A DNA stretch of 64,000 nt from Escherichia phage RB69. Below are positions 46,917-52,270 of this stretch, piece after piece. Position 1 is the first letter of the stretch; each line of letters starts with the position of its first letter. A model generated the notes under the pieces. The model had not been told where the DNA came from. It saw only the letters and a program-made list of their open reading frames with translations, and ran no database searches. The translations under genes and the position numbers were made by a program. The stretch lies in the sequence record NC_004928.1, one strand, 5' to 3'.

Positions 46917-46950
46917 ACAAAAAAAGGGACCTTACGGTCCCTTTTTTCGT
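46917..46950. terminator. bidirectional terminator between gene 24 and rnlB
   Basis: A-run, GGGACCTTACGGTCCC hairpin, T-run; convergent genes on both sides. Confidence 0.8.
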
Positions 46951-47948
46951 TATGATACTAATTCAATCCATGCAGGACGCAGAACATCTTGCACCATTCG
47001 GACTAATTCTTTCTTAACAAGATTCGGATTATCAGATGTTGTTAATACAATACCTTCACGAGAAGTTTCTTCCAGAATATCTTGAACAGTCAATCCCATC
47101 ACTTTGCCAAAATCTTTTGGCGTTACAGTCCCAATCTTAGAAATAACATTATTAACACGATTTAATGTAACATAACAAGCTAGAACATCAAGCAAGTTTT
47201 TGTCAATTTCGGTTAATGGAACCTGAGTTTTAATAGGCTTATCAGACTTTTTCTTTTCACTGAATTTAGAGTTCTTGCACTTAATCGCTACACGAGTACC
47301 GTTTGGCAGCCATTTAGGGAAACAAGGCTTCAGAACATAACCTTCTGCAGTATTATCACCAATAACATTAGCATCAAATACACAATTATTTGCTTCTACA
47401 AGGTCTTCTGACGCAGTAGCATTATAAGCGGCTAAAACGGAATCAAGGTCATTTGGAATCATGATAAGAGAATCAAATGTTCCACGACCAAGCATTGGTG
47501 CCATTTTAAAACCGAATTCATTACAGAAATCTTGCATTTCGTAATCGGTCAAATACGTATTATCACCACTTTCTGTATTGATAAGGATATCGAACACATA
47601 AAAATCTTTTTCACCGTAGTCAACACCTTTCTGGATTCCACCACCAGCGAATTCACCGAATACTTGATATGATACGGCTCGAGCTGTGTACATGAATTTC
47701 TGAACGGTTTTAATAGCTTTATCATACTTCTTGAGTACGATTTCATAACCATAAAAATCTTCTGCTGGAAGAATAGGGCCTGTGCGCTTGGCGCATGTGA
47801 CGTTGTCACGTTCAATTATTAACGAGAAGTTGGTCCCATGGATTTTCTCACGTGCTACCCAAACACCAGTAGTCAAACCATTAGTGTAGAGTTTTTCAAT
47901 AAACTTAGAGTTGTAGTGGTTTTCAAGACTGCTGTATTTCTTAAACAT
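46950..47948 (-). CDS. rnlB: RNA ligase 2
   Basis: [21 protein letters not shown]...[17 protein letters not shown]... matches T4 Rnl2 including lysine-adenylation motif KIHG. Confidence 0.95.
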
Positions 47949-48067
47949 AAATCACCATTATAAATAATAATATCAAAATAATTAGCAGAGACTCTATCTC
48001 CGACCCGATGTTTAATTTGAATGGATAGAACCTAGATTCATTATACCATCAAAAAATGTAAAGCATA

Positions 48068-48319
48068 TTAGAACTTGATTTCTATCCAATGACCATCACG
48101 TTGGTCGTGATTAATTTTGTACTGAAAGCCGTTATCACGAAGCCATTGACCGACTTGTTCAGTTATAGTTAAATCGTTCTTTGACGGGTAGTACGTGAAT
48201 TGTGTCTGACCTTTGTCAGCGGCTTTCTCTGCCATCGCAGAGAAGTTAGTAATAAAATCACTCAACAAATTAGCTTTAGTGGCCAGAGCCCTTTCTCTTA
48301 ATTCCTGTGCAAAACTCAT
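48068..48319 (-). CDS. hypothetical protein
   Basis: 83-aa ORF between rnlB and hoc. Confidence 0.5.
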   Translation of the reverse strand: MSFAQELRERALATKANLLSDFITNFSAMAEKAADKGQTQFTYYPSKNDLTITEQVGQWLRDNGFQYKINHDQRDGHWIEIKF

Positions 48320-48516
48320 TTCTTCACCTTTTTGTTAATCAAACGTTTACGGTATACAACTTTTTCTTTTGCTTTAAACTTTGACCGAGCTGTCTCGGCT
48401 TTAGTCCATAGTAATCCAACTTCTTTAGGTTGTAAACCGATTTTTTGAGCAATTTCTACGAATGAAAATCCCGCCTCATGTAATGTATAAACTTCAACTT
48501 CAGCTCTCATAATCAA
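48316..48516 (-). CDS. small protein with helix-turn-helix-like segment
   Basis: 66 aa; AGFSFVEIAQKIGLQPKEVGLLW resembles an HTH; basic C-terminal tail. Confidence 0.5.
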   Translation of the reverse strand: MIMRAEVEVYTLHEAGFSFVEIAQKIGLQPKEVGLLWTKAETARSKFKAKEKVVYRKRLINKKVKK

Positions 48517-48574
48517 TCCCGTATTATTTGGTTTGTGCCATTATATACATCAATCTCACGTTGTGTTTTGTATG

Positions 48575-48606
48575 CTTTAAAAACGAAGAAAGGGGCCGAA
48601 GCCCCT
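48575..48606 (-). terminator. rho-independent terminator after hoc
   Basis: Minus strand GGGGCTTCGGCCCC followed by TTTCTTCGTTTTT. Confidence 0.7.
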
Positions 48607-48611
48607 TACGA

Positions 48612-50027
48612 TTATGGATATGTATAGATGATACCAGTTTCCAAAGCAGTTTTATGGATGATGTATCCATTACGTGATTCTTGAACATCAACTTCTGGAT
48701 AGTCTTTCATCATCTTCTGAAGAGTGTAACGATGCAGGTAGTATTTACTATCTGGATCTTCAGTTTTCCAATCTTTACCTTCTTCAGTCATTTTTTGGAT
48801 TTCATCCATAACCCACCAACCGCACCAGATGTAAGCTGAAGTACGATGTGGAAGAGGATGAACATAAGGTAGTTCACCTTCTGGCTCAATTGGAGTCTGT
48901 TCAGTAATAACAACTTCAGCGGTTGAACTAATTGTCTTTGAAGTATAGTTATCTTTAGTTAATACTGCTTCAACTTTAATTGTATGAGTACCAGCTGAGG
49001 AGGTATCAATACTGTAAGTATTAGTAGAATTACTTTCTGCTACATTGTCTTTCTTCCAAGAATACACAATATTAGTATCACCTGGAGCACCAGTAACAGA
49101 TGCTGTTAAAGTTGCAGTTCCGCCAACAGTAGTATTAACTGATGGCGGAGATAAAGAAATGGTGGCACTATTAAATGTAGCATTATTAGTTACTACTGTT
49201 GCTTCTGCTGAAATTTCTTTTGTAACATAATTTGTTGCAGAAACAGATACGGTGCATTTAAGAGTTTTACTTCCGACCTCGGTTGGAGTGAATTTATACG
49301 TAGCAGAAGTTGCATCCAGAATATTACTGTCATCCATTGACCATTGGAATGATGTAGTAGCACCTGAAGGTGCACCAGAGACATTTGCAGTTAAAGTAAT
49401 AGGAACACCAAAGACCGTAGTCGGAGACTCAGGCGTAATTTTTAGTGTTGAAGAATTAGCCTTTTTATTTACAGTCAAAGAAACCGCTGATGATTCTACT
49501 GTTTTATCAACGTAATCAGTTGCAGTCACTGTGACAGAACAAGTTATAGACTTAGTTCCTTCAGATGTTGGTGTATATTCAAAGGTTGATTGCTTTTGAC
49601 CATCAACAGCGACCCCGTCAACTTTCCATGTATAAGCAATAGCAGCACCACTAGGTTGATTGCTTACATTAGCAGTGAATGTTGTTGCTGTTCCAATTTC
49701 TACTGCCGCCGGAGAAGCCGGAGTAACAGCGACGGTAGAATTATTTTCTTTCTTATTAACAGTGATAGTTGTTGACGCTTCAGCTATTTCCGGATCTCCT
49801 GCGGAAAGTGTATTGGTTGCAACCACTTTAATTTTTTTTGTTCCTGCCGGAGAAGCAAGAGTATAATCCATTGTAGCAGCCGTAGACTCCTGTGCTATAT
49901 CATCTACAGTCCAGACGTATGTAATAGTACCATCTGGAGTTTCACCTGCAGGTGTAGCAGTGAATGTTTGTGAACCTCCAATAACCCCTGTAGGAGTTAA
50001 AGGAGATAACGTGACAGTGAATGCCAT
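48612..50027 (-). CDS. hoc: highly immunogenic outer capsid protein Hoc (Ig-like repeats)
   Basis: 471 aa; four tandem Ig-like segments of about 95 aa and a C-terminal domain YIWCGWWVMDEIQKMTEEGKDW typical of Hoc capsid-binding region. Confidence 0.88.
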   Translation of the reverse strand: MAFTVTLSPLTPTGVIGGSQTFTATPAGETPDGTITYVWTVDDIAQESTAATMDYTLASPAGTKKIKVVATNTLSAGDPEIAEASTTITVNKKENNSTVAVTPASPAAVEIGTATTFTANVSNQPSGAAIAYTWKVDGVAVDGQKQSTFEYTPTSEGTKSITCSVTVTATDYVDKTVESSAVSLTVNKKANSSTLKITPESPTTVFGVPITLTANVSGAPSGATTSFQWSMDDSNILDATSATYKFTPTEVGSKTLKCTVSVSATNYVTKEISAEATVVTNNATFNSATISLSPPSVNTTVGGTATLTASVTGAPGDTNIVYSWKKDNVAESNSTNTYSIDTSSAGTHTIKVEAVLTKDNYTSKTISSTAEVVITEQTPIEPEGELPYVHPLPHRTSAYIWCGWWVMDEIQKMTEEGKDWKTEDPDSKYYLHRYTLQKMMKDYPEVDVQESRNGYIIHKTALETGIIYTYP

Positions 50028-50036
50028 AAGTTATCC

Positions 50037-50705
50037 TTATTTTAATGTTACGAAAGAAGAATTACGAGTTTCACGAATTAGAACTGATCCATCGCGATTA
50101 ATATAATAAATTAAGCTAAATAATGTTTGGTGAGCAGAAGCATGCACAAAACTCGTTGGGTGAGATTTCCAATCTGGGGTTTCGGCTATCCATTGATAAA
50201 TCCACCAAGGAACAGTAACATATCCTGGGCCTTTGCCTAATTTAATGAGTGTAGGACTAAAATTTTCAGGCAGAACAAAATTTACTTCTTTATTTACTTC
50301 TGGCTCAGGCTCTTTTTCAGATTCAACAACCTGAGTAATTGCTTCTTCGAATTTATCATGGTCGAATTCTTTTTCTTGTTCGACAACTTCTAATACTTCA
50401 ACTTGTTCTGTTGGAGAATCAAACAACAGAATAGCTTCTTCTTTAACTTCTTCGTTGGTGAAATTAACACCGTCCACATCATCTGCGGCAGTAATTAAAT
50501 CAGTAATAGATAATCCATCAGTTTCAGGTAATGGTTCATCAGCCAGTGCGTTAAGAGCTTCTTCGATATCAATAACAATATTATCGAACGATTTTGTTTT
50601 CTTAACACTAATGCCAAATTGTTCTGCATATTCAAACAGTTTAGCTTTAGCTTCCTTTTTATCAGAAAGAGCACGTAACTCTTCAATATAGTCTTTATCG
50701 ATCAT
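50037..50705 (-). CDS. inh: Inh-like protein (inhibitor of prohead protease), by synteny
   Basis: 222 aa acidic protein between hoc and uvsW as T4 inh. Confidence 0.65.
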   Translation of the reverse strand: MIDKDYIEELRALSDKKEAKAKLFEYAEQFGISVKKTKSFDNIVIDIEEALNALADEPLPETDGLSITDLITAADDVDGVNFTNEEVKEEAILLFDSPTEQVEVLEVVEQEKEFDHDKFEEAITQVVESEKEPEPEVNKEVNFVLPENFSPTLIKLGKGPGYVTVPWWIYQWIAETPDWKSHPTSFVHASAHQTLFSLIYYINRDGSVLIRETRNSSFVTLK

Positions 50706-50718
50706 GGTATTTCCTCAT

Positions 50719-50726
50719 TATAAATA
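50719..50726 (+). promoter_or_regulatory. late promoter TATAAATA
   Basis: Exact TATAAATA 30 nt upstream of uvsW. Confidence 0.65.
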
Positions 50727-50755
50727 TAACTATATTTATTACATGGTAATTTGAC

Positions 50756-52270
50756 ATGACTGACATTAAAGTACATTTTTATGATTTTAGTCACGTGCGC
50801 ATTGAATGCGACGAAAGTACGTTTTACGAACTTCGTGACTTTTTTAGCTTTGAAGCTGACGGGTATAAATTTAACCCAAAATATCGCTATGGGCAATGGG
50901 ATGGTAGAATTCGACTTTTAGATTACAATCGTTTGTTACCATATGGACTTGTAGGACAAATAAAAAAGTTCTGTAACAATATGAGTTATTCTGTATGGAT
51001 TGACCCTAAAATCTTTGAGACCGAAGACCTTACCAGGGAAGATTTTGACGCGTGGCTTTCTAAACAAGAAATTTATTCAGGCAACGCCAAAATCGAACCA
51101 CATTGGTATCAAAAAGATGCCGTATATGAAGGTCTGGTTAATCGTCGTCGAATTTTAAACCTTCCGACATCAGCAGGTAAATCACTAATCCAAGCACTTT
51201 TAGCTCGATATTATCTAGAGAACTATGAAGGTAAAATTCTCATTATCGTCCCTACAACAGCATTGACAACCCAAATGGCTAATGATTTTGTTGATTATCG
51301 CTTGTTTAGTCATTCGATGATTAAGAAAATTGGCGGTGGTGCTGATAAAGCGGACAAATCTAAAAACGACGCTCCAATTATTGTTGGCACATGGCAAACG
51401 GTAGTTAAGCAGCCTAAAGAATGGTTCTCTCAGTTCGGTATGATGATGAACGATGAATGCCACTTAGCAACAGGCAAAAGTATTTCTTCAATCATCTCAG
51501 GATTAAATAATTGCATGTTTAAATTCGGTTTATCTGGCTCATTAAGAGACGGAAAAGCCAATGTAATGCAGTACGTAGGTATGTTCGGCGAAATCTTCCG
51601 TCCTGTTAGCACGTCTAAATTAATGGAAGACGGACAGGTAACTGAGCTTAAGATTAATAGTATTTTCCTTCGTTATCCAGACGAATTCGCCACCAAATTA
51701 AAAGGTAAAACATACCAAGAAGAAGTTAAAATTATTACCGGACTAAAACGTCGTACAAAGTGGATTGCTCAACTTTCGGTAAAATTGGCTAAGAAAGACG
51801 AGAACGCCTTTGTAATGTTTAAACACGTTACACACGGTAAAGAAATATTTGAAGCTATTAAAGAGCTTGGATACGAAAAAGTTTATTACGTATCAGGTGA
51901 AGTTGATACTGAAACACGTAACGCTCTTAAAGTCATGGCAGAAAATGGTAAAGGCATTATTATTGTCGCATCATATGGAGTATTCTCTACCGGTATTTCA
52001 GTCAAGAATCTTCATCATGTTATTTTTGCTCATGGTGTTAAATCAAAAATTATCGTACTTCAAACCGTAGGTCGTGTGCTTCGTAAGCACGGTTCTAAAG
52101 CTGTTGCTACAGTTTGGGATCTCATCGATGACGCAGGTGTAAAACCTAAATCATTAAATACTAAAAAGAAGTATACTCATCTTAATTACTTGTTAAAACA
52201 CGGTATTGATCGTATCCAACGTTACGCTGATGAGAAATTTAACTATGTAATGAAAACAATTAATTTATAA
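50756..52270 (+). CDS. uvsW: UvsW DNA helicase (SF2)
   Basis: MTDIKVHFYDFSHVRIECDESTFYELRDFFSFEADGYKFNP...; Walker A PTSAGKS; matches T4 UvsW. Confidence 0.95.
   Translation: MTDIKVHFYDFSHVRIECDESTFYELRDFFSFEADGYKFNPKYRYGQWDGRIRLLDYNRLLPYGLVGQIKKFCNNMSYSVWIDPKIFETEDLTREDFDAWLSKQEIYSGNAKIEPHWYQKDAVYEGLVNRRRILNLPTSAGKSLIQALLARYYLENYEGKILIIVPTTALTTQMANDFVDYRLFSHSMIKKIGGGADKADKSKNDAPIIVGTWQTVVKQPKEWFSQFGMMMNDECHLATGKSISSIISGLNNCMFKFGLSGSLRDGKANVMQYVGMFGEIFRPVSTSKLMEDGQVTELKINSIFLRYPDEFATKLKGKTYQEEVKIITGLKRRTKWIAQLSVKLAKKDENAFVMFKHVTHGKEIFEAIKELGYEKVYYVSGEVDTETRNALKVMAENGKGIIIVASYGVFSTGISVKNLHHVIFAHGVKSKIIVLQTVGRVLRKHGSKAVATVWDLIDDAGVKPKSLNTKKKYTHLNYLLKHGIDRIQRYADEKFNYVMKTINL

Follow-up and report, generated by a model that had tools for sequence, protein, structure and literature searches.

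Two small, overlapping genes on the minus strand of a 64,000-nucleotide (nt) stretch of Escherichia phage RB69 (sequence record NC_004928.1; the whole stretch is referred to as the window) were analyzed. They are the orthologues of the phage T4 genes 24.3 and 24.2, which have long been catalogued as conserved hypothetical genes and are already known. The reading favored here, held at slightly less than an even chance, is that the product of the first gene (gp24.3) binds nucleic acid as a small early/middle protein with a helix-turn-helix (HTH) and a basic arm, that it is made in step with the product of the second gene (gp24.2) through translational coupling, and that its function is host- or condition-dependent and non-essential. 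The additions to what was known are modest. They are a corrected expression class and a fold-level annotation that was not found in the literature searched, in which the DUF2774 family is a sigma-region-4-like HTH followed by an invariant basic arm and gp24.2 may have a uS8-N/R3H-like core. The genes and their putative translation signals are as follows.

48316..48510, minus strand, 24.3 orthologue, 64 amino acids and stop; Pfam DUF2774 (PF11242), PHROG 1566
48068..48319, minus strand, 24.2 orthologue, 83 amino acids and stop; PHROG 2416 and precomputed Pfam PF26862
48508..48520, minus strand, Shine-Dalgarno-like GGGA and ATG start of 24.3, GGGATTGATTATG
48316..48330, minus strand, 24.2 Shine-Dalgarno within the end of 24.3 and ATGA stop/start overlap, AAGGTGAAGAAATGA

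The window is a genome segment of the Mosigvirus type (T4-like, Straboviridae), and the 671 bases around the pair share 99.1% identity with Escherichia phage vB_EcoM_NBG1 (NBG1). The 64-amino-acid product matches Pfam DUF2774 across all 63 positions of the model (106.8 bits against a cut-off of 29.2, E 6e-31) and is 65% identical to the Tequatrovirus copies annotated as 24.3. The 83-amino-acid product matches PHROG 2416 (E 1.8e-34) and is 54% identical to T4 gp24.2 over 82 residues, and PF26862 is carried as a precomputed family by its close homologues. Both products are 98-100% identical to proteins in many sequenced Mosigviruses. With tblastn, the first was found in 1077 phage records and the second in 710. 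This spread, the DUF2774 score, and the protein-level temporal classes of the T4 genes place the open reading frames (ORFs) well beyond chance.

A sequence-only reading of the window had noted a 66-amino-acid product at 48316..48516 that overlaps the start of an 83-amino-acid ORF by 4 nt. Both ORFs are present on the minus strand, at 48316..48516 (66 amino acids from TTG) and 48068..48319 (83 amino acids), and the overlap is the ATGA at 48316-48319. The first product is probably shorter than proposed. As judged from the start context, the ATG at 48510, which gives 64 amino acids, is a far more likely start than the TTG at 48516, because the same ATG is annotated in NBG1 and T4, because relatives have a GGGA/GAGG Shine-Dalgarno 6-8 nt before it, and because the TTG would adjoin that Shine-Dalgarno. 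The junction reads ...AAG AAA TGA / ATG AGT..., and the AAGGTGA Shine-Dalgarno of 24.2 sits within the 3' end of the 24.3 ORF. The overlap is annotated in relatives as well. This arrangement implies that 24.3 and 24.2 are a translationally coupled pair.

The structure of gp24.3 was explored through its relatives. When 1.84 billion cluster representatives were searched exhaustively with phmmer, 24.3 had 35 matches, mostly phage proteins of 60-117 amino acids, and 27 small members formed the family alignment. A word-indexed homologue search with single queries returned just two proteins for each of 24.3 and 24.2. The AlphaFold2 model built on the 27-member alignment (predicted local distance difference test score, pLDDT, 88) has helices at residues 3-12, 17-24, and 28-47, followed by a non-helical tail. 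The classical A21/G25/V31 HTH pattern is present, and the first position of the recognition helix is S, T, or Q in the family. The two parts of the protein and the structural matches to the model, with their scores, are given below.

48370..48504, minus strand, three-helix HTH domain of sigma region 4/LuxR type, residues 3-47, from the predicted model
48340..48366, minus strand, EKVVYRKRL, residues 49-57, which opens the basic tail and is non-helical in the model
1rp3, FliA, 7.7 (1.2 Å over 48 residues)
3hug, SigL with RslA, 7.5
5fgm, SigR region 4, 7.3
2h27, SigE region 4 on -35 DNA, 7.1
3t0y, PhyR, 7.0

Domains of the LuxR/GerE/NarL type rank next after the sigma region 4 matches. When sequences from the PDB were compared with the 24.3 family profile, weak but consistent HTH matches were seen to IS21 transposase, VirB, and RpoE (E 0.05-0.08). 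Searches of PDB chains with the single 24.3 and 24.2 proteins gave chance-level matches only. The HTH-like segment and the lysine-rich tail noticed in the sequence-only reading are thus both supported, the former by the three-helix model with its best structural matches to sigma region 4 domains and the latter by the composition of residues 41-64 (12 K/R versus 1 E, isoelectric point (pI) 11.3). Across the family the net charge is -3 to +2 in the head, 0 to +4 in residues 41-49, and +4 to +11 in the tail. Nearly invariant residues in the alignment are I20 and A21 of the HTH core and V52, Y53, R54, K55, and R56 of the tail (at least 90%), and the window's EKVVYRKRL fits the family motif that follows the HTH, (E/P)K(V/I)VYRKR. 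On the predicted model, gp24.3 can best be summed up as an invariant basic arm joined to a minimal HTH head of sigma-4/LuxR type. A shared docking motif was also considered and was rejected, as VVYRKR occurs in no other frame of the window.

Several of the phmmer matches are long proteins with 3-8 tandem repeats that resemble 24.3 residues 6-39, and Pfam calls these repeats Sigma70_r4, HTH_23, HTH_38, and HTH_7. Among the long proteins with tandem sigma-4-like HTH repeats, P0006, P0018, P0021, and P0027 are from GC-rich organisms and have 4-8 such repeats, and some of them end in homing-endonuclease-associated (HNH_repeat) domains. Outside phages, these four are closest in sequence to the DUF2774 head.

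Expression of the pair can be taken from T4. The T4 genes 24.3, 24.2, and rnlB, the RNA ligase 2 gene that follows them, are all classed as early RNA, middle protein (PMC9697503, supplementary files 4 and 6). All three are scored as Not Fit in a genome-wide dCas13d knock-down screen (PMC11879866, supplementary file 15). The sequence-only reading had described a DNA-binding protein inside the late region. The pair does lie among late genes, but its expression is early/middle and not late, as indicated by the T4 classes and by the promoters. 24.3 and 24.2 are early/middle, dispensable accessory genes and are not late-region regulators.

The promoter calls are consensus matches combined with textbook knowledge, and the consensus is the one familiar from T4 middle promoters. 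The candidate signals in the window are these.

48540..48545, minus strand, TATAAT -10-like hexamer upstream of 24.3, putative promoter, conserved in T4
48590..48607, minus strand, intrinsic terminator hairpin after hoc, AAGGGGCTTCGGCCCCTT and T-run
48040..48065, minus strand, MotA-box-type middle promoter with extended -10 for rnlB, TGCTTTA-N13-TGgTATAAT, consensus match

No clear -35 or MotA box was found near the TATAAT at 48540-48545, in the window or in T4. Upstream of 24.3, some relatives have early-type promoters of T4 (GTTTACA-N17-TAAGAT) and other relatives have MotA-box middle promoters (TTGCTTT-N12-TAnnnT). No late promoters were found upstream of the 24.3 orthologues in relatives, and the minus strand of the window has no late TATAAATA box from 47900 to 48700. 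A generic sigma-70 scan of the region gave fewer sites than shuffled sequences did. The hairpin at 48590-48607 would cut the pair off from late transcription of hoc. The MotA-type promoter of rnlB lies directly past the stop of 24.2 and is kept in many relatives. It is absent in T4, where rnlB starts 9 nt after 24.2, within the 24.3-24.2 operon.

An alignment of 23 database-derived sequences was used for gp24.2. Only A4, A11, A34, G37, and G76 are invariant or nearly so. The AlphaFold2 model (pLDDT 88.8) has a helix at 3-35, a strand at 40-43, a helix at 49-62, and a hairpin at 66-72/76-82. Foldseek with this model ranked uS8 chains first, with a probability of up to 0.99 but E of 0.07-0.3 and template modeling scores of 0.45-0.54. 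Ribosomal_S8 of Pfam is matched by 8 of the 23 members, all below the cut-off (best E 0.0015), and is not matched by the window's own gp24.2. The family profile matches uS8 chains at E 0.025. In hhalign, 24.2 residues 26-69 align with residues 10-49 of E. coli S8 (P 0.0011, probability 20%), and S8 came 8th among 20,016 when ranked with its own shuffled copies. Since several independent signals agree, each of them below threshold, gp24.2 may be a uS8-N-domain/R3H-like alpha/beta module. This is a lead and not a classification. The conserved nuclease motifs of Smr, LDLHG-type and HGxG-type, were both absent from the family alignment, and a comparison with the defense-system families of PADLOC gave a single chance-level match (E 0.034).

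The pair would thus consist of translationally coupled, pre-replicative (early/middle) accessory genes that encode proteins of 7.4 kDa (gp24.3) and 9.7 kDa (gp24.2). gp24.3 most likely binds nucleic acid, with DNA as the first-choice ligand and RNA as the other candidate. The tail, touching the backbone or the minor groove, would provide most of the affinity, and the HTH head, which is near neutral, would serve for orientation or for contact with a protein. gp24.2 would be probably made in step with gp24.3 through translational coupling and would contribute a beta-alpha-beta-beta core that resembles small RNA-binding modules (the uS8 N-terminal domain, R3H, and Smr). The two proteins may form a complex, and the pair may have a regulatory effect.

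A number of observations weigh against this reading or temper the move from an HTH fold to a DNA-binding regulator. Knock-down of T4 24.3 or 24.2 has no detectable fitness cost in the laboratory host, so any role of the two genes would be conditional. The best-conserved stretch of gp24.3 is the strand-like, basic EKVVYRKRL, which is conserved above the HTH surface. The head (residues 1-40) is acidic, with a pI of 5.1. At the sequence level gp24.3 has no significant membership in any characterized HTH family. The residues of E. coli sigma-70 that contact the -35 element are R584, E585, R586, R588, and Q589. Their equivalents in gp24.3, in a non-significant hhalign register, are P28, K29, E30, G32, and L33, and across the family these positions hold A/P, K/S/Q, E/D, A/G, and a variable residue. 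Basic recognition-helix residues are therefore not conserved at the contact positions, and an acidic head that lacks them could just as well bind a protein as read DNA. The likeness to the sigma-4 fold does not by itself establish a function. In gp24.2, all likenesses of fold and sequence are below threshold (Foldseek E of at least 0.07; hhalign probability 20%). Several genera retain 24.3 with an intact tail motif but without 24.2, and for this reason an obligate 24.3-24.2 heterodimer was set aside as unlikely. No functional study of gp24.2, gp24.3, or DUF2774 was found in the literature searched.

The pair may instead act on the RNA side as accessories of RNA ligase 2 (Rnl2), with gp24.2 and gp24.3 binding RNA or the ribosome and either helping to direct Rnl2 to its physiological substrate or sharing with it a pathway of RNA repair or one related to translation. 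This is considered rather unlikely, although the gene neighborhood, counted in sampled loci of T4-like genomes, is suggestive. Of 32 phage loci, 31 have an Rnl2 gene that follows the DUF2774 gene on the same strand at a distance of 150-1450 nt, and one distant metagenomic locus (L036) has this arrangement too. In most loci a 24.2-family gene stands directly before rnlB; 24.2 is missing in L011, L012, L023, L024, L026, and L030, and unrelated small ORFs take its place in L007, L025, L027, and L028. The three T4 genes adjoin one another, with the 9-nt gap before rnlB, and belong to one temporal class, and the best fold matches of gp24.2 are RNA-binding modules. In RB16 (L041, 1621-4613), rnlB is not near the capsid genes and is still flanked by a divergent DUF2774 protein (p232, two genes upstream) and by a weak 24.2-like protein (p236, downstream together with a DprA-like gene). 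It is also preceded by a gene annotated as srd, decoy of host sigma70. Against this, the RB16 DUF2774 match is below the Pfam cut-off (E 7e-5), and all of the loci are T4-like with strong general synteny, so that the genes may be neighbors by descent and not by function. In addition, rnlB in the window has a putative promoter of its own, by consensus match, and T4 Rnl2 works as a purified enzyme with no partner added. L031, L035, and L037 have DUF2774 without Rnl2 nearby, and Rnl2 is found in 1374 records that include Acinetobacter and Vibrio phages without an adjoining DUF2774. As these break the pairing, a strict dependence between 24.3 and Rnl2 was rejected. A more specific form, in which gp24.3 and gp24.2 are the missing in vivo partners of Rnl2, seems quite improbable. 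In this form gp24.2, as a uS8-N mimic, would dock on ribosomal or other structured RNA, the VVYRKR arm of gp24.3 would clamp nucleic acid, and the two would send Rnl2 to damaged RNA, such as RNA attacked by a host nuclease.

gp24.3 could also work by its head as a decoy of sigma region 4 that binds Rsd, AsiA, an activator, or the beta-flap of RNA polymerase and tunes the switch from host to phage transcription, with the tail tethering it to DNA. Sigma region 4 domains are the closest known structures, several of them solved with anti-sigma factors (RslA, FlgM, RsdA, NepR), and the acidic-to-neutral head with small residues in its recognition helix is atypical of a DNA reader. The genes are expressed in the early/middle phase, when T4 remodels sigma-70 region 4 through AsiA/MotA. 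Genomes of the T4 type also carry annotated sigma decoys, such as the srd gene that adjoins rnlB in RB16. However, the model has only three helices and lacks the region 4.1 helix, which helps to form the surface for the beta-flap and for anti-sigma factors. There is no significant sequence likeness to sigma-70 region 4 (hhalign P 0.18 for residues 530-613 of E. coli RpoD), and it is the basic tail, not the head, that is best conserved. A decoy is thus held to be very unlikely. The same low standing is given to the proposal of the sequence-only reading, a sequence-specific transcriptional or anti-defense regulator whose HTH reads an operator and switches particular phage or host genes. The predicted HTH fold agrees with it, as do the classical A/G/V signature and the S/T/Q at the first recognition-helix position. 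But gp24.3 has a single HTH of 45 residues with no evident dimerization element and no conserved basic residues in the recognition helix, its knock-down has no fitness effect, and the genes are early/middle and not late. No operator-like repeat turned up near the pair, where no search was aimed at such repeats, and 24.3 has no match in PADLOC.

The link to Rnl2 is the only aspect that could have weight beyond annotation. DUF2774 usually accompanies RNA ligase 2, with RB16 included in spite of its match below the Pfam cut-off, and this linkage is documented here. If it is functional, it offers a cheap way, open to experiment, of approaching what Rnl2 does physiologically, and if gp24.3 and gp24.2 are partners of the enzyme, they would give a first way into the biology of T4 Rnl2, a long-standing question. 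If it is not functional, 24.3 and 24.2 are two more small, dispensable accessory proteins of the T-even phages.

The minus-strand order around the pair is inh, hoc, the terminator hairpin, the 24.3 orthologue, the 24.2 orthologue, and RNA ligase 2, so the pair does lie between rnlB and hoc, as had been proposed. rnlB is convergent with the capsid vertex gene 24. The neighboring genes are listed here.

50037-50705, minus strand, inh
48612-50027, minus strand, hoc
46950-47948, minus strand, rnlB (RNA ligase 2), conserved neighbor downstream of the 24.3/24.2 pair

Some features of the surrounding genes differ among the genomes. The hoc ORF of the window encodes 471 amino acids, versus 376 (1131 nt) in the closest relative NBG1 and in T4, and it appears that the hoc head decoration protein of this phage has an extra Ig-like repeat. 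The gap between inh and uvsW is only about 50 nt (50705-50756), whereas NBG1 and T4 have a homing endonuclease gene (segE-like) there; the window genome thus lacks that mobile insertion. In Karamvirus and other genera (L003, L016-L019, L032), an extra conserved ORF of about 109-118 amino acids lies between the 24.3 and 24.2 orthologues, and in L015 this ORF is fused in frame to 24.3 to give an ORF of 193 amino acids. A DprA/Smf-like gene annotated as a DNA recombination-mediator is found downstream of rnlB or DUF2774 in L003, L006, L031, and L041. It is absent from the window. Scans of the region with NCBIfam, PADLOC, and Rfam gave nothing meaningful.

The pair can be compared with a number of known systems. 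The three-helix HTH fold predicted for gp24.3 is superposable on region 4 of sigma-70, but gp24.3 is a stand-alone protein of 64 amino acids without regions 2/3 and without the region 4.1 helix. The Pfam scan of the window's gp24.3 gave no match to Sigma70_r4 or Sigma70_r4_2, and only 4 of its 27 relatives match Sigma70_r4_2, at E 0.023 or worse. Homology to sigma-70 region 4 was rejected because the hhalign comparison was not significant. As a sequence match, the region 4.1 helix, and the other sigma regions are all missing, gp24.3 is not a member of the sigma region 4 family. LuxR/GerE domains have four helices with a C-terminal dimerization helix, whereas gp24.3 has three helices and an unstructured tail, and membership in this type was not borne out, since GerE is matched by two of the 27 members at E 0.0029 or worse. 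HTH_38 is matched weakly by individual members of the family. The DNA-binding domain of Hin/resolvase (Pfam HTH_7) likewise consists of three helices in a small, monomeric HTH whose recognition helix is followed by a basic extension, and in Hin/resolvase this arm enters the minor groove, which is the analogy drawn for the tail of gp24.3. HTH_7 is matched weakly by 4 of the 27 members (E of at least 0.05), and gp24.3 is without a recombinase domain.

gp24.2, at 83 amino acids, would be equivalent only to the N-domain of ribosomal protein uS8, without the C-terminal RNA-binding domain, and its 33-residue N-terminal helix is absent from uS8-N, R3H, and Smr. When gp24.2 was aligned with the R3H pattern by eye, T51 and Q55 fell at the R-x3-H positions, and R and H are absent there in T4 gp24.2 and other members too. 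T4 gp24.2 itself is found, as in the window, directly after 24.3 with an overlapping start, and the T4 copy differs by a 9-residue N-terminal extension.

The 24.3 copy of the T4 reference (L002, NC_000866, 2416-2586) is without 11 residues, AMTAKNKFETR, which make up the second half of helix 3, owing either to an in-frame deletion specific to the strain or to an error in the old sequence. These residues are present in the window protein and in other Tequatrovirus copies (L008-L010, L020), and the NC_000866 copy keeps the HTH core and the VVYRKR motif despite the gap. gp24.3 of T4 and of the window share the minus-strand position after hoc and before 24.2/rnlB, the start context, and the invariant VVYRKR motif, and no essential difference separates the two.
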